Shown here piece after piece: positions 3,138 through 20,590 of a stretch of DNA of 64,000 nucleotides. Each line of letters starts with the position of its first letter. The first letter of the stretch is position 1. The stretch is from an uncultured bacterium (GTDB taxonomy: Bacteria; Patescibacteriota; Minisyncoccia; Phycocordibacterales; DATDWN01). The position numbers were made by a program, and so were the translations under genes. The stretch is from positions 39,976-103,975 of the forward strand of contig CAIOTC010000020.1 in the NCBI GenBank assembly GCA_903861205.1, in the 5' to 3' direction. The notes under the pieces were generated by a model. That model was not told the origin of the DNA. It did no database searches and saw nothing but the letters and a program-made list of their open reading frames with translations.

Positions 3138-3599
3138 ATGAACGAAAAGGAATATCTTACGCAGGAGAAGTTTGACGAGTTTAAAAAGGAGCTGGCTAAT
3201 TTGAAAAATGTTCGTCGCAAGGAAGTGGCCGAGAATTTGGAATATTCAAAAGCCCTCGGTGACCTGGCGGAGAATGCTGAATATCATGAAGCGCGAGATA
3301 TGCAGGCAACCATCGAGGACCGCATTGCCAAGCTTGAGGAATTGCTCAAAAACGCCGTCATTGTTTCCGCGCATGATGCGACCGGTACTGTCAACGTCGG
3401 CTCTGTCGTGACGGTGGAAAAAGACAGTAAAACGTTCATTTACACCATTGTCGGTTCCGAGGAATCAGATGTCACCTCAAACAAAATTTCCATTCGTTCA
3501 CCGTTCGGCCAGGCTGTTCTAGGCAAGAAAAAAGGCGAAAAATTCACTTTCAAAGCACCAAACGGCGAGCTTTCGTATGTGGTTAGTGATGTGAAGTAA
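3138..3599 (+). CDS. greA: transcription elongation factor GreA
   Basis: N-terminal coiled coil (YLTQEKFDEFKKELANLK...RRKEVAE) and C-terminal FKBP-like domain. Typical GreA size from the ATG at 3138. Confidence 0.85.
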   Translation: MNEKEYLTQEKFDEFKKELANLKNVRRKEVAENLEYSKALGDLAENAEYHEARDMQATIEDRIAKLEELLKNAVIVSAHDATGTVNVGSVVTVEKDSKTFIYTIVGSEESDVTSNKISIRSPFGQAVLGKKKGEKFTFKAPNGELSYVVSDVK

Positions 3600-5404: not shown

Positions 5405-5839
5405 ATGTTGATTGGCGAATACACACATTCAATAGATGAAAAAAACAGAATTTCGCTTCCGGCGAAATTTCGCGCGGAGATGGGCAAGAAGATGGTGGTT
5501 ACTCCGGGATTGGACGGATGTTTGTGGGTCTTCACTTACAAAGAGTGGCAGAAGATTGAGGAAAAGTTGAACCAGTCGTCGCTGGGTCAGGCTGATAATC
5601 GCGGTTTCAATCGTTTTATGTTTGCGGGCGCGACGGAAGCGGAAGTGGACTCGATCGGTCGAATTCTCATTCCAGATTTTCTCCGTGACAGGGCAAATCT
5701 GAAAAACAAAGTGGTGGTCATAGGCGTTTCCAGTCGAGTGGAAATTTGGAATGAGAAGACATGGACTGATTACAAGAAAGGCGTCGAGAAAACGGCCGAC
5801 ACGCTGGCGGAAAAGCTGGGACAGGTAGGAGTGTTGTAA
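5405..5839 (+). CDS. mraZ: transcriptional regulator MraZ
   Basis: 144 aa. Two SpoVT/AbrB-like halves with a DxxxR-type motif (IDEKNRISLPAKFR ...). First gene of the dcw cluster. Confidence 0.9.
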   Translation: MLIGEYTHSIDEKNRISLPAKFRAEMGKKMVVTPGLDGCLWVFTYKEWQKIEEKLNQSSLGQADNRGFNRFMFAGATEAEVDSIGRILIPDFLRDRANLKNKVVVIGVSSRVEIWNEKTWTDYKKGVEKTADTLAEKLGQVGVL

Positions 5840-5957
5840 CAATTTTCAATTAACAATTTCCAATTTTCAATAAATGACACAATTTATCAATTAAACAAGT
5901 GAATTCAATTGGTTTATTGATTCATTGGAAAATTCATTGGAAATTGAAAATTGATAC

Positions 5958-10483: not shown

Positions 10484-10492
10484 TTTTTCATA

Positions 10493-10534
10493 AAAAAAGC
10501 CCCGGAGCGGACTCAGGGGCATCGGGCTTTTTTT
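10493..10534 (+). terminator. terminator-like hairpin after murF (aaaaaagccc...gggcttttttt)
   Basis: GC stem flanked by an A-run and a T-run, so it could act bidirectionally. Confidence 0.55.
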
Positions 10535-11101
10535 ACGAACATTTTTGCGAACAAAAACAGAACAAATAACAACTCGCTCAGATCAGGGGGTGGGTTATTC
10601 CGCCCGTCTAGTCAACTTGTGCTTTCGCACCTGCTGGCCAAAATTGCGGGTTTCCCCAACCTCCTGATACTTTCGCATCCGTCGGCCGCATTTTTGTGCG
10701 CCCAAAGATACCCATATTACCATCGACAAGTGGACTTGCCTTCGGCTCCCAGGGTGGGGATTTGACCGTCTAGTCTTTTGTTGGCTCTAAACCAAATGCT
10801 GTTTATCCTTACCGGCATTCCAAGGACGTTTACTTCTGCCAGAATCCCTTTGGATTTGGAGATTAACCCGACAGAAATAATTTTTCGGTTTGGTCAATGA
10901 TACAAGGACTGCTCTTGTTTTGTCCCGCTTTTGACGGCGAAACTTTGAAGGGAATTTCTTCCCACTGATTGCTTAGCTTTAAACTGAGAGCAAGATATCC
11001 ACTCTACGCTCTCCAATCAGTACAGCCTTCCGTATCTGTTCCGGTTCTGGTGGCAAATATACACTTGTCGGATGAAGATGGTGGGAAGATGGAGATGAGA
11101 T

Positions 11102-11129
11102 AAAAAAACAGCACACCACTTGGGTGCGC
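11102..11129 (-). terminator. rho-independent terminator downstream of the metalloprotease gene (minus strand)
   Basis: On the minus strand: gcgcacc-caagt-ggtgtgc followed by tgttttttt. Confidence 0.6.
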
Positions 11130-11145
11130 CGTTATGAAGTCGAAC

Positions 11146-15423: not shown

Positions 15424-15501
15424 ACCAAACCTCCTGATACAATTATACTACCAACCAATATAAAAGTCAAGCTAAACTGTGGATAACTAAACCAATTTTT
15501 G

Positions 15502-16389: not shown

Positions 16390-17430
16390 ATGGAGATAAT
16401 ACTCTATATTCTTATTGGGCTAGTGGTTGGTGGAACGATCGCATATTTATTGCGGTCGAAGCCAGAAACAAACGACACCGGGCTCAAACTAATTCTCCAG
16501 CAAATCAATGAGCTCAATCGCACGGTGGATGCCAAAATCGGCGAAAGTAGCCGGCATATGAACGAATCGGTGCGGACGCAACTTGGCGAGTCAGCCAATT
16601 TGATTCGTGAAGTGACGAAAGGTTTGACCAAACTCGACGAAACGAATCGTCAGGTGGTTTCTTTTGCCGATCAACTCCAAAATTTGCAGGACATTTTGAA
16701 AAATCCGAAACAGCGCGGAATTTTAGGCGAATATTATCTGGAAACGTTGCTGAAAAATGTTTTGGCGCCGGCGCAATATCAGATGCAATACGCTTTTGCC
16801 AGCGGGGAAATTGTTGACGCGGTTGTTTTTGTCAAAGATAAAATCATTCCGATTGACTCCAAATTTTCGCTTGAAAATTACAACCGTTTGACCGAGGCCA
16901 AAGATCCGACCGAAAAAGATCGGCTGGAAAAACTTTTTGTCAGTGACCTGAAAATCCGCATTACCGAAACGGCCAAATACATTCGGCCAGCCGAGGGGAC
17001 GATGGATTTCGCTTTTATGTTCATTCCACACGAGGCTATTTATTACGATTTACTCATCAACAAAATCGGTGGAATTTCCGACGATACGGAAAATTTGATT
17101 CAACGTGCGGCCGGAAAATACAAAGTCATTATTGTTTCGCCGACTTCATTTCTGGCTTACTTGCAAACGGTTTTGCAAGGACTCAAAGCCATGCAAATCG
17201 AGGAAACGGCCAAGGATATTATCAAACGTGTGGGCGAGCTCGGCGAACATTTGAAAAGGTACGAAACATATCACGGCAAGTTGGGCACTTCGCTCGAAAC
17301 GGTGGTCAATCATTTCAACGCTTCGAGTAAAGAATTCAAAAAAGTGGACAAGGATGTCATGCGAATAACTGGCACGTCGGTGGACATCGAAACGTCGCTG
17401 ATTGAAAAACCGGAAGATAGTAGTCAGTAG
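16390..17430 (+). CDS. rmuC: DNA recombination protein RmuC
   Basis: N-terminal TM helix, long coiled coil and a C-terminal RmuC nuclease-like domain (FMFIPHEAIYYDL...). Confidence 0.75.
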   Translation: MEIILYILIGLVVGGTIAYLLRSKPETNDTGLKLILQQINELNRTVDAKIGESSRHMNESVRTQLGESANLIREVTKGLTKLDETNRQVVSFADQLQNLQDILKNPKQRGILGEYYLETLLKNVLAPAQYQMQYAFASGEIVDAVVFVKDKIIPIDSKFSLENYNRLTEAKDPTEKDRLEKLFVSDLKIRITETAKYIRPAEGTMDFAFMFIPHEAIYYDLLINKIGGISDDTENLIQRAAGKYKVIIVSPTSFLAYLQTVLQGLKAMQIEETAKDIIKRVGELGEHLKRYETYHGKLGTSLETVVNHFNASSKEFKKVDKDVMRITGTSVDIETSLIEKPEDSSQ

Positions 17431-17487: not shown

Positions 17488-17766
17488 ATGAAATTTTTTT
17501 GGGAATCAAAACCAGCGGTTGTGGAGCAAGATCAAGAAAAAGTGGCGGAACTCGTGCGCATGGTGCAACAATGGTCAAATGTTGAATCGTTTGCCAGTGA
17601 GCCGGGTTCTTCTCACGGTGGTGATAATACAAATGTTTCAGAATTAGTTGCAAATATTTCTGAACAAGCAAAAACATTGTCATCAGATCAAATCGACGGC
17701 GCATTTAAAATGGCACAATTAAATGATGAGGAAATAGGTAGATTGAAAGAATTGCTTGGTAGGTAG
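17488..17766 (+). CDS. hypothetical protein (92 aa)
   Basis: ORF with ordinary codon usage and no recognisable domain. Confidence 0.35.
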   Translation: MKFFWESKPAVVEQDQEKVAELVRMVQQWSNVESFASEPGSSHGGDNTNVSELVANISEQAKTLSSDQIDGAFKMAQLNDEEIGRLKELLGR

Positions 17767-17789
17767 GCGGGTGTGGATAAGTGATTGCA

Positions 17790-18131
17790 ACAAAAAACAC
17801 TTCATGATAAGTTAATATAGGAAATACGTTCGCGATCAGCACGCTTTGAATTGCCATAACTCGCTCTACCTCGTTTAGCTGCGTAGCCACAAAACTGTTC
17901 CGCAGCTCGGACTAAATGCGATCGATTATCGAGATGTCGGTTGCAGGCAGTTAACCCGTTCAACCAGGAGGTAACCCCCCCGTGAATATTCATTCTCCTC
18001 CGATGAAGGATGGCGGCGACTAGCGTTCCCAGTGCCAAAGGGTAAGTTGCGGGGCGGCCGCGAGTGGCCCCCCGCAACGCAAATTTGTTCATTCGTTTTC
18101 ACACGACGACCCTTCGGGGTTGTTTTTGTTT
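17790..18131 (+). ncRNA. candidate structured noncoding RNA 1 (family unassigned), ending in a rho-independent terminator
   Basis: About 340 nt of GC-richer noncoding sequence with strong internal hairpins, e.g. gttgcgggg-cggccgcgagtggc-ccccgcaac. It ends in gaccc-ttcg-ggggt followed by tgtttttgttt at 18104-18131. No ORF with coding character. Confidence 0.25.
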
Positions 18132-18229
18132 AAAAATTTATTGTGGAAAACTGCTTGCGTAAAAAATTACTACATGATATCTTAATGAAGAAGTTGTTCA
18201 TTTTTGTTGAGGAGGAATTTCTCTTGAAG

Positions 18230-18440
18230 CATTCTTCTCATCAGCGGCGGGCCAGGGATAAGGATATTCTGCCCTAGCTTCCGGCTAGGGCGAGCGATAG
18301 AAGCGAGGGAAAGTCGGCAATGAGCCGAAACCTCAAGACTGACATCGCGTCAAACACCGGCGGTGGGGGCATGGCAAAGCGCGAAACTTGCCCCCACAAA
18401 CCATTTCACAACGCGAGCTACGGCTCGTGTTTTTCTTTTT
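18230..18440 (+). ncRNA. candidate structured noncoding RNA 2 (family unassigned), ending in a terminator just upstream of the uvrB promoter
   Basis: Hairpins ccctagc-ttccg-gctaggg and gtgggggca-...-tgcccccac, and a gagggaaagtcggc motif weakly reminiscent of the RNase P P4 strand. Terminator cgagc-tacg-gctcg followed by tgtttttcttttt at 18411-18440. Confidence 0.25.
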
Positions 18441-18445
18441 CAATC

Positions 18446-18459
18446 TACGCTATAGCGTA
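18446..18459. promoter_or_regulatory. perfect 14-nt palindrome TACGCTATAGCGTA upstream of uvrB; its half-site TAGCGTA recurs overlapping the uvrB ATG
   Basis: Palindrome seen directly. Third half-site at 18499-18505. Candidate operator of a DNA-repair gene. Confidence 0.35.
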
Positions 18460-18505
18460 AATCATAAATTTTTATTTTTCATATTTATGTTGTATTGTGT
18501 AGCGT

Positions 18506-20590
18506 ATGCAATTTAAGATAAAAAAAGATTTTCAACCTGCTGGTGATCAGCCACAGGCGATTGAGAAGCTGGTCAGTGGTGTCAAAAAAGGTCTGAAGCA
18601 CCAGACCCTTTTGGGCGTGACCGGAAGCGGAAAAACTTTCACCGTGGCCAATGTTATCCAGGAAATTCAGAAGCCGACGTTGGTCATTGCCCACAACAAA
18701 ACTTTGGCCGCTCAACTGGCGCAGGAGTATCGCGAATTTTTTCCCGAAAATGCCGTGCACTATTTTGTTTCGTACTACGACTACTATCAGCCGGAAGCTT
18801 ACATGCCTGTTTCGGACACATACATAGAAAAGGAAGCGATGATAAACCAGGAAATTGAACGTTTGCGACACGCCTCGACGCAGGCGCTTCTGACGCGCAA
18901 AGATGTCATTATTGTGGCGTCTGTTTCGTGCATTTACGGCCTCGGTTCGCCGGTGGAGTATGAAAAAGTTAATTTGAAAATTGGCGTAGGCGAGCGAGTT
19001 TCCCGCGCAGAATTCATCCGCAAACTAATCGACATTCATTTCGAACGCACTACGGCGGATTTGTCGCCGGGACAGTTTCGGGCTATCGGCAACATGGTGG
19101 AAATCATGCCAGTGTCGGAAAAGTGCATTTTTAGAATTGAAATCGAAAATAGTAAAATCGAGAAAATTTTAAAAATCGACGCGATAACGAGAACGATTTT
19201 GGAAGAGACACAAGTTTTCTTTTTGTTTCCAGCCAAACATTTTATTTCCACCAAAGAACAAAGCGCGCAGGCTTTCAAAACAATCAAAGCGGAATTGGCC
19301 GGGCAATTGAAAAAATTTGAAAAGGAGGGAAAACTTTTGGAGGCGGAACGTCTCAAGCGACGAACGAGCTACGACTTGGCGCTTATTCGAGAGATTGGAT
19401 ATTGCAACGGAATCGAAAACTATTCGCGGCATTTTTCCGGCAAGTCAGCGGGCGAACCGCCGGACACTTTGTTGTCGTACTTCCCACATAAGGCTGATGG
19501 CTCGGCTGATTTTTTAACTATCATCGACGAGTCGCACGTTTCTGTCCCTCAAATTGGCGCGATGTACAACGGCGACGCGGCGCGCAAGCAAGCTCTGGTG
19601 GACTATGGTTTTCGCTTACCGAGTTGTCGTGATAATAGGCCTTTGAAGTTTGAAGAATTTGAACAGCGAGTTGGTCAGACGATTTACACCAGCGCCACGC
19701 CGAGCGATTACGAACGTGAGCACAGCACACAAGTGGTGGAGCAGGTTATTCGCCCGACCGGGCTTATCGATCCGGTGGTGGAGGTGCGCCCAATAGTGAG
19801 TGGAAAAGTGTCAAGGGTGCCCCTTGCCATGCGAAGCCAAATGGCAAAGGGCACCTTTGACACGAGTGAGAACTATCCCGGCCAGATTGCCGACTTCATT
19901 GTCGAAGCTGAAGAAAATATCAAGGCTGGCGGACGAGTGATTGCCACGACGCTGACCAAAAAAATGGCGGAGGACTTGTCGGAATATTTGAAAGAAAAAG
20001 GGATTAAAGCCGAATATTTGCACAGCGACATCAAAACGATCGAGCGAATCGAGATTTTGACCAACTTACGTAAAGGGCCGGAAAACGGTGGTTTTGATGT
20101 GCTTGTCGGAGTGAACTTGCTCCGCGAAGGTTTGGATTTGCCGGAGGTGACACTCATCGGCATTTTGGACGCGGACAAGGAGGGATTTTTGCGTAGCGAC
20201 ACATCGCTCATTCAAATCATCGGCCGCGCCGCCAGAAATGTAAAAGGCAAAGTGATTTTATACGCCGACAGCGTGACCAAGTCGATGAAATTTGCTATGG
20301 ATGAAACGAATCGCCGCCGAGCAATCCAGATTGCTTACAATACAAAACACGGCATCACTCCGAAAACGATTATTAAAAAAATTCAGGATATCACCGACCA
20401 ACTGCAATCCAAACACCAAAAAACTGTCAAAGAACTTTTAACCTTCGATATTAAAACGGAAAAAAATATCAAGTCGGTTATAAAATACAAAGAAAAACAG
20501 CTGAACTCCGCCGTCAAAATCCTCGACTTCGAAACAGCAGCGCTTTTGCGTGACGAAATTGTGGAGTTGACAAAGTTGGTGGAAAAATAA
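18506..20590 (+). CDS. uvrB: excinuclease ABC subunit B
   Basis: 694 aa with helicase motifs GVTGSGKT and DESH, a beta-hairpin region and the C-terminal UvrB/UvrC interaction motif (...AAL LRDEI...). Confidence 0.95.
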   Translation: MQFKIKKDFQPAGDQPQAIEKLVSGVKKGLKHQTLLGVTGSGKTFTVANVIQEIQKPTLVIAHNKTLAAQLAQEYREFFPENAVHYFVSYYDYYQPEAYMPVSDTYIEKEAMINQEIERLRHASTQALLTRKDVIIVASVSCIYGLGSPVEYEKVNLKIGVGERVSRAEFIRKLIDIHFERTTADLSPGQFRAIGNMVEIMPVSEKCIFRIEIENSKIEKILKIDAITRTILEETQVFFLFPAKHFISTKEQSAQAFKTIKAELAGQLKKFEKEGKLLEAERLKRRTSYDLALIREIGYCNGIENYSRHFSGKSAGEPPDTLLSYFPHKADGSADFLTIIDESHVSVPQIGAMYNGDAARKQALVDYGFRLPSCRDNRPLKFEEFEQRVGQTIYTSATPSDYEREHSTQVVEQVIRPTGLIDPVVEVRPIVSGKVSRVPLAMRSQMAKGTFDTSENYPGQIADFIVEAEENIKAGGRVIATTLTKKMAEDLSEYLKEKGIKAEYLHSDIKTIERIEILTNLRKGPENGGFDVLVGVNLLREGLDLPEVTLIGILDADKEGFLRSDTSLIQIIGRAARNVKGKVILYADSVTKSMKFAMDETNRRRAIQIAYNTKHGITPKTIIKKIQDITDQLQSKHQKTVKELLTFDIKTEKNIKSVIKYKEKQLNSAVKILDFETAALLRDEIVELTKLVEK

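Follow-up and report, generated by a model that had tools for sequence, protein, structure and literature searches.

A stretch of contig CAIOTC010000020.1, 64,000 nucleotides (nt) long and derived from an uncultured bacterium of the Patescibacteria, raises a simple question: what lies between uvrB (18506-20590) and the small open reading frame (ORF) of 92 amino acids (aa) upstream of it (17488-17766)? The gap of about 740 bases (17767-18505) has only short and overlapping ORFs, and no gene was called in it on three independent metagenome contigs, whose sequences are identical. An original prediction, made from the sequence of this whole stretch (hereafter the window), had described the gap as free of credible ORFs, GC-richer than the surrounding intergenic DNA, and divided by two plus-strand rho-independent terminators into units that would be either diverged housekeeping RNAs or novel small RNAs (sRNAs). 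What the prediction had observed was confirmed: no credible ORF is present, the G+C content is 0.47-0.56 within the region compared with 0.34-0.40 in the adjoining AT-rich intergenic spacers, and a terminator scan recovered both of the sites that had been placed at 18104-18131 and 18411-18440 (Table 1).

The best explanation as a whole, which we consider reasonably probable, is that the two units, U1 and U2, are tandem stand-alone genes for structured noncoding RNAs (ncRNAs) that form two previously undescribed, narrow families of Paceibacteria, are expressed from their own DnaA-box promoters, and act in trans. Judged by sequence, U1 and U2 match no known RNA family and appear to be two new, narrowly distributed structured ncRNA genes.

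Structural conservation of the two units

Each unit has one recognizable orthologue, found via the contigs of the closest UvrB proteins. By its UvrB, the window belongs to the Parcubacteria/Paceibacteria group of the Patescibacteria; the nearest UvrB is 79% identical among GTDB genomes and 85% identical among 5.8 billion proteins. The U1 orthologue (in locus L083) and the U2 orthologue (in locus L171) are both directly upstream of uvrB, but behind tgt. In L083, where UvrB is 83% identical, tgt and uvrB are separated by a 371-nt gap that holds a collinear homologue of U1. The body of U1 is similar only to positions 1090-1340 of this locus (local-alignment z = 7.8), and 33 of 33 aligned base pairs are kept, with three double and five single-sided changes. 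The blocks common to the two sequences are UCGAUUGCAAG, AACCC, and AGGAGG followed after 19 nt by CAUUCUCCCCCGAUG, together with the long G+C-rich hairpin and the terminator, whose counterpart (L083 1312-1337) has a stem that differs by one double compensatory change.

In L171, where UvrB is 81% identical, the gap between tgt and uvrB is 505 nt long and holds a clear orthologue of U2 at about 2044-2306, with 77% column identity over the body. All 44 pairs in seven helices are kept, six with double changes. In control comparisons, slid alignments paired 44-55% of cells, and 9 of 500 shuffles reached the observed values. The long-range helix P1, for example, is UUUGUUG:CGAUAGA in U2 and UCCACUG:CGGUGGA in L171, with two double and two single changes, and in the hairpin at 18305-18334 GAGG:CCUC is replaced by GGGG:CCCC and UCGGC:GCCGA by CCGGC:GCCGG. 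The predicted fold of U2 also surpasses those of shuffled sequences (z = -4.2, with 0 of 200 shuffles as good). The terminator stem of U2 is kept in L171, where the U tract is supplied by a second hairpin. Between the U2 orthologue and uvrB, L171 has a second structured, terminator-ended unit (2300-2470) that is unrelated to U1, since a model of the U1 core (R1) finds nothing there.

Coding conservation was sought on both strands by tblastx against the orthologous region, and neither a significant match nor a conserved reading frame was found. A 96-aa minus-strand ORF (17802-18092) was rejected as a gene because the orthologous region has stops in every frame and tblastx gave nothing significant. 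The comparison in relatives that had been proposed with the original prediction thus favors RNA genes, in that all aligned pairs are kept, with double changes, and RNA structure is conserved without conservation of coding; its support is limited to two sequences per family. A scan of 2 kb contained four terminator-like sites compared with 2.0 expected, a count that alone is not significant. The two terminators rise above chance because they stand at the ends of conserved units and are retained in the relatives. Each unit ends in a strong intrinsic terminator, as stand-alone sRNA and ncRNA genes do.

It is extremely improbable that the units are diverged housekeeping RNAs, for which the original prediction had suggested RNase P RNA, transfer-messenger RNA (tmRNA), 6S RNA, or signal recognition particle (SRP) RNA. 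Sizes of 250-320 nt would fit such RNAs, and the U2 string GAGGGAAAGUCGGC is similar to the 5' strand of RNase P P4 (GAGGAAAGUCCGG). However, Rfam 15 at the gathering score assigned only two tRNAs in the whole 64-kb window and no riboswitch, T-box, ribozyme, or large ncRNA. A permissive Rfam scan of 17600-18650 (E ≤ 10) gave chance-level matches (blv_FSE, SprD, RUF6-5, and similar) and no RNase P, 6S, SRP, tmRNA, riboswitch, or ribozyme. ARAGORN found two tRNAs and no tmRNA in the window, and Rfam assigned no family in 13 related loci. The P4-like string, recorded in the original prediction as gagggaaagtcggc, is the 5' half of the local hairpin at 18305-18334, whose compensatory changes in the orthologue show that it pairs locally and not with a distant 3' strand; U2 is, moreover, too short for RNase P RNA and lacks its other conserved regions. 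The predicted and comparative folds of the units are multi-branched, in contrast to the rod of 6S RNA, which is about 180-200 nt long with a large central bubble. Finally, the units are absent at the same locus in most close relatives, which would be unexpected of an essential RNA, with copies elsewhere in those genomes being possible. The housekeeping half of the original alternative is therefore not borne out, while its other half, novel RNAs, gains support from the structure-keeping substitutions in the orthologues.

In a different reading, the units would serve as mRNAs, or as leader-peptide cassettes, from which tiny ORFs are translated: MNIHSPPMKDGGD in U1 (17983-18024) and MKHSSHQRRARDKDILP in U2 (18224-18277, starting with TTG), each start codon being preceded 8-10 nt upstream by a strong GGAGG that is sequestered in a helix. 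A perfect Shine-Dalgarno (SD)-like GGAGG with a start codon 4-10 nt later is present in U1, U2, L083, L171, and L028, although SD sequences are rare in this genome, and it opens small ORFs (sORFs) of 9-17 codons; in every case the GGAGG is paired with a downstream CU-rich stretch. The codons for HSPPM are common to U1 and L083, with one synonymous difference (CCU/CCC). Against this reading, the peptides of 9-17 aa are hydrophilic, those of U2 and L171 are unrelated, and those of L028 and L083 are not conserved, the shared GAUGUCA being read in different frames. Sequence conservation also reaches well past the sORFs, helices outside them co-vary, and tblastx gave nothing significant. Translation of the sORFs is possible and a conserved peptide unlikely, and we regard the tiny-ORF reading as quite doubtful.

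Promoter blocks and DnaA-box motifs

Ahead of each unit lies one copy of a 45-nt direct repeat, D1 (17772-17816 and 18142-18186, 76% identical), whose promoter pattern is confined to these two sites within the window. Beyond this promoter block, homology between U1 and U2 is not demonstrable, and R1 has no match on U2. Each copy combines a DnaA-box motif with a putative promoter (Table 1), and so do the orthologues. In L083, the box and promoter read TGTGGATAACTGTTGCAA, 17 nt, TAAATT. L171 carries an identical box (TGTGGAAAACT) and a nearly identical promoter block (TGTGGAAAACTCATTTGCAT, 17 nt, TAAGTT), whose spacer and -10 (ACTTCATGATAAGTT) are the same as those of U1. The same motif, in the same orientation and position upstream of uvrB, is found in L083 and in two further loci, L010 and L018. 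Across U1, U2, L083, L171, L010, and L018, the box (TGTGGATAA or TGTGGAAAA) stands 3-5 nt before the -35, which is the fixed placement of a consensus box relative to the core promoter that would be expected of a DnaA-regulated promoter.

In a comparison of 64 uvrB loci from Patescibacteria, the 800 nt before uvrB showed an enrichment of about 11-fold in perfect DnaA boxes (7 in 50 kb vs 9 in 736 kb). The composite of box and -35 (TGTGGAWAA-N3-5-TTGNNN) was found at nine sites; at five of these it lies immediately before uvrB and on the same strand as that gene, and L171 provides a sixth such site.

One interpretation of these motifs is that the functional elements act at the DNA level, as DnaA boxes for the titration or reactivation of DnaA like those of Escherichia coli DARS1 in the uvrBp3 region, with the transcripts as by-products. 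The enrichment of consensus boxes upstream of uvrB agrees with this interpretation, as does the situation in E. coli, where the region upstream of uvrB carries the DARS1 boxes and DnaA represses uvrB (PMC6015884). We nevertheless find it highly improbable. Each unit has a single box, with no cluster around the units at ≤2 mismatches, compared with the three or more closely spaced boxes of DARS and datA elements, and the compensatory substitutions in the RNA helices show selection on the transcript. An oriC or DARS at this site was likewise rejected, given that there is no box cluster and that the skew profile in 2-kb bins has no minimum at 16-20 kb. A finer local skew profile dips near 16.3 kb.

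Similar elements were observed at other sites. A third perfect DnaA box (TTATCCACA) is located at 15465-15486 on the minus strand of the window, 7 nt upstream of a strong promoter (TTGACT, 17 nt, TATAAT) for a small ORF of about 78 aa that is led by an SD (about 15432 to 15196, minus strand). A promoter much like this one (TTATCCACAGT...TTGACTTTT) stands ahead of the first of the two tandem RNA units that precede uvrB in L010. In L059 (4798-4995), the DnaA-box/-35 composite TGTGGATAACTTTTGAGA is followed by a structured RNA of about 150 nt and a terminator, just upstream of two tRNA genes; this RNA has no Rfam match.

Table 1. Features of the region upstream of uvrB (positions in the window)
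Feature	Position	Strand	Details
U1 DnaA-box motif TGTGGATAA	17772..17780	+	exact reverse complement of consensus TTATCCACA, 0 mismatches; 4 nt upstream of -35
Putative U1 promoter	17785..17813	+	-35 TTGCAA (17785-17790), 17-nt spacer, extended -10 TGA-TAAGTT (17808-17813)
U1 RNA	17818..18133	+	~315 nt; 5' end predicted
U1 conserved core	17935..18005	+	UCGRUUGCARG, AACCC, AGGAGG, 19 nt, CAUUCUCCYCCGAUG
U1 sORF MNIHSPPMKDGGD	17983..18024	+	13 codons, inside conserved core
U1 long G+C-rich hairpin	18046..18078	+	conserved in L083; double compensatory changes at two pairs (U-A to C-G, C-G to U-A)
U1 intrinsic terminator	18105..18133	+	scan: 18105-18124, 8 pairs then TTTGTTT
U2 DnaA-box-like motif TGTGGAAAA (TTTTCCACA)	18142..18150	+	1 mismatch; 4 nt upstream of -35
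Putative U2 promoter	18155..18183	+	-35 TTGCGT, 17-nt spacer, extended -10 TGA-TATCTT
U2 RNA	18188..18441	+	~255 nt; 5' end predicted
U2 long-range helix P1	18203-18209 with 18295-18301	+	encloses SD-like helix and a hairpin
U2 SD-like helix GGAGG...UUCUUCUC	18211-18237	+	inside P1
U2 hairpin GCCCUAGC...GCUAGGGC	within 18203..18301	+	inside P1
U2 hairpin with RNase P P4-like string GAGGGAAAGUCGGC	18305..18334	+	covariation vs L171
U2 long G+C-rich hairpin	18363..18397	+	10 pairs: 9 invariant, 1 with one-sided change
U2 intrinsic terminator	18410..18441	+	scan: 18410-18431, 9 pairs then TTTCTTTTT
uvrB promoter -10 box TATTGT	18493-18498 (boundary element 18493..18508)	+	7 nt before ATG (18506); not part of the RNAs

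Transcription of uvrB and RNA units in other lineages

The -10 box of uvrB lies 3' of the U2 terminator, which indicates that uvrB has its own promoter and that the RNAs are not its leader. In the window and in L083, L085, L003, L004, L010, L018, L028, and L057, a -10 box precedes the ATG of uvrB by 6-7 nt, and it is kept also in relatives without an upstream RNA (L085, L003, L004). Because a TATAAT-like box is found at this distance from the ATG in about half of the genes in the window (for example, at 16390, 24314, 25970, 54598, 57006, and 62707) and an SD was flagged in only 4 of 48, the genome appears to be largely leaderless. An untranslated uvrB leader, the reading that the original prediction had named as its possible undoing, is not supported in view of the conserved -10 box of uvrB: a cis-acting leader belongs to a gene that has no promoter of its own and is transcribed through the element, and uvrB is not such a gene. 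Between the U2 terminator and the uvrB promoter is a perfect 14-nt palindrome, TACGCTATAGCGTA (18446-18459, or -60 to -47), which is unique in the window and could be an operator for a uvrB regulator; a half-site, TAGCGTA, is located at 18498-18504, right before the uvrB ATG.

The main rival to stand-alone RNA genes is cis-acting control of uvrB, in which the units would be conditional terminators, similar to riboswitches or attenuators, or a transcriptional-interference module. In the interference variant, read-through from upstream would occlude the leaderless uvrB promoter or yield an untranslatable uvrB mRNA with a long leader, since the uvrB AUG would then be internal and without an SD in a largely leaderless genome. 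A structured RNA and terminator occur directly before uvrB in at least nine Paceibacteria contigs, while the genes upstream of them differ (rmuC and an ORFan in the window; tgt in L083, L171, L170, and L057). The order of promoter, structured leader of 250-300 nt, terminator, and gene is the classical cis-regulatory layout, seen in riboswitch, leader-peptide, and T-box leaders, whose position before the same gene is also conserved. Unlike the genes behind such leaders, however, uvrB has its own leaderless promoter, and its -10 box persists in relatives that lack any upstream RNA. Two complete units stand in tandem here, so that a whole second unit separates U1 from uvrB. The uvrB-upstream RNAs of different lineages are not homologous, which is a poor fit to a riboswitch that senses a ligand. 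Inspection by eye showed no pairing of the U1 terminator with the 3' strand of the G+C-rich hairpin before it, and no antiterminator pairing was noticed in U1 or U2, for which no systematic search was made. On balance, we judge cis-acting interference or attenuation to be unlikely.

Both units have a narrow distribution. Searches with blastn and nhmmer for either unit gave no match in 80 uvrB loci of GTDB genomes, in most of which a coding gene directly precedes uvrB, and 8 of 11 close UvrB relatives have no comparable upstream unit or only an unrelated one. No sign of mobile-element origin was found: two pattern scans of viral contigs gave nothing relevant, and blastn against phages and plasmids gave no match.

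Other units composed of a promoter, an RNA, and a terminator are found upstream of uvrB in L010, L018, L028, L057, L169, L170, and L086. Two tandem units precede uvrB in L010 (2920-3432) and L018 (1-505). The second of these, about 300 nt long and behind TGTGGATAAGTGTTTGACT, is homologous between the two loci (z = 36), has a G+C-rich hairpin whose loop displays AUCCUCCGAGCC, and gives no Rfam match. A third unassigned RNA, which is also terminator-ended and upstream of uvrB, is common to L169 (~90-390), L170 (~1975-2245), and L086 (~3190-3260); its blocks are GGGGCC..CCCCGGAAAGG and AGCAUGUUAGCGAGA, it has no Rfam match, and an 82-aa minus-strand ORF called in L086 is probably spurious. L028 and L057 have shorter units before uvrB, again with no Rfam match. 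L004 has a short, structured, terminator-ended unit upstream of uvrB (5540-5650) followed by a small ORF with an SD in front (MPDSPTISIDVAVMRYKVSRRKLYYMIKDG...; about 69 aa, 5727-5935) that is helix-turn-helix-like in appearance. We abandoned the idea of a single family of uvrB-upstream RNAs because pairwise local alignments detected no relationship of U1 or U2 to the RNAs found in L010/L018, L028, and L057. What recurs across these loci is an arrangement and not one RNA family.

Two further observations concern the window itself. The 92-aa ORF that adjoins U1 upstream matched only itself among 5.8 billion proteins and was unusable as an anchor. This ORF also looks leaderless (TATTAC 6 nt before the ATG), and no terminator separates it from U1, so that its transcript could run into U1. 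Elsewhere, a 662-nt gap without a long ORF (10484-11145) has minus-strand terminators at 11133-11107 and 10514-10497, and may contain another unassigned minus-strand transcript or small gene.

Interpretation and comparison with known systems

In our preferred interpretation, two stand-alone RNA genes, each unit would be transcribed from its own promoter, in which 17 nt separate a -35 from an extended -10. Judged against the consensus, these promoters are weak, and the DnaA-box motif 3-5 nt before the -35 occupies a position at which an activator or repressor could contact RNA polymerase. From this placement of the box next to the -35, we infer that synthesis of the RNAs is probably tied to DnaA and, with it, to replication status. 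Given that the promoter of the leaderless uvrB follows the second terminator, the RNAs would be released as separate molecules, and a regulatory role in trans is the most likely one for them. They might make contact through the conserved single-stranded blocks UUGCARG and AACCC and through an anti-SD-like CU-rich stretch (CAUUCUCCUCC) that is held in a helix with the internal GGAGG. A further effect of the terminators may be to insulate the promoter of uvrB against transcription coming from upstream. Our best guess at function is that U1 and U2 are DnaA-linked regulatory RNAs, possibly part of a replication-stress or DNA-damage circuit alongside uvrB.

Several results weigh against this interpretation. 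The two members in each family give little statistical power for covariation; with two sequences the shuffle control for U1 is weak, as 55 of 500 shuffles reached the observed values. The fold of U1 is marginal compared with shuffles (z = -1.55), and the fold of the U1 core, comprising the proposed P1 and SD-like helix, shows no gain over shuffles (z = 0.2 and -1.0). R1 scored 88 bits on U1 and 86 bits on L083, with no other match in 811 kb, and a model of the U2 core (R2) found only U2 and L171 in 836 kb; the recovery of only their own two members from about 0.8 Mb of related loci suggests that the families are narrow or fast-evolving. A pattern scan of metagenomes (AGGAGGN{14,24}CATTCTCCNCCGAT) yielded 62 loci, all of them chance matches in unrelated organisms. 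In a consensus promoter scan, the U1 and U2 promoters fell below the threshold, with 7 of 12 positions matched, and they are therefore deduced from conservation. When each RNA was paired in silico with the 5' end of the uvrB that follows it, the predicted RNA-RNA duplexes were no better than those of shuffled sequences. Lastly, the units constantly adjoin uvrB, a position that cis-regulatory elements take more typically than sRNAs acting in trans.

We speculate, with low confidence, that a DnaA-box-controlled ncRNA module is a recurrent, fast-evolving partner of leaderless uvrB across Paceibacteria, coupling the replication initiator to nucleotide-excision repair. It is an equally tentative suggestion that such a module could be a functional analogue of the DnaA-controlled uvrBp3/DARS1 of E. 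coli, working via structured RNAs; no SOS/LexA-type control of uvrB was seen here.

Patescibacteria (the candidate phyla radiation, or CPR) are uncultured bacteria with tiny genomes and few recognizable regulators, and to our knowledge almost nothing is known of their regulatory RNAs and transcription control. This locus offers two new families of structured RNA that are supported by comparison, a concrete promoter architecture in which a DnaA box stands 3-5 nt before the -35, and evidence of a largely leaderless genome. If the link to DnaA is true, it would give a minimal cell a simple route for tying repair or stress RNAs to replication status, and it would suggest that the connection of DnaA with uvrB known from E. 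coli is widespread or recurrent. If it is false, U1 and U2 are simply two more lineage-specific sRNAs.

Among known systems, type I toxin mRNAs occupy variable intergenic sites, as in the SOS-linked tisB/istR-1 and dinQ/agrB. U1 and U2 resemble them in their predicted transcripts, which are structured, about 250-300 nt long, and sequester an SD and a start codon, in their tandem copies, in their patchy distribution among close relatives, and in having DNA-damage genes as neighbors. A type I system pairs a hydrophobic toxin ORF (about 18-60 aa) with an antisense RNA, whereas the sORFs here are 9-17 aa long, hydrophilic, and not conserved, and no antisense RNA gene is evident, the minus strand not having been specifically examined for one.

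Trans-encoded sRNAs with C/U-rich, anti-SD-like seeds, such as those of the RsaE/RoxS class, are also comparable. Like U1 and U2, these are stand-alone genes with their own promoter (putative here) and an intrinsic terminator, several hairpins, and a narrow distribution, and they have conserved C-rich or CU-rich stretches, comparable to ACCCCCCC and CAUUCUCCUCC. There is no homology by Rfam, and U1 and U2 differ in being longer and more branched, U2 having a long-range closing helix; their CU-rich stretch is paired to the internal GGAGG instead of being displayed in a loop, in a host that hardly uses SDs.

The E. coli uvrB region provides a parallel in position. There, the uvrBp3 region upstream of uvrB (-567 to -280) contains the three DnaA boxes of DARS1, and uvrB is repressed by DnaA together with LexA (PMC6015884). 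Here, DnaA-box motifs are located at -734 and -364, together with putative far-upstream promoters directed toward uvrB, a likeness that is positional only. The E. coli element is a three-box cluster acting as DNA, accompanied by LexA boxes, and no structured, terminated RNA has been described there. In contrast, each promoter at the present locus has a single putative box, behind which come a structured RNA that is conserved and then a terminator, ahead of a leaderless uvrB.

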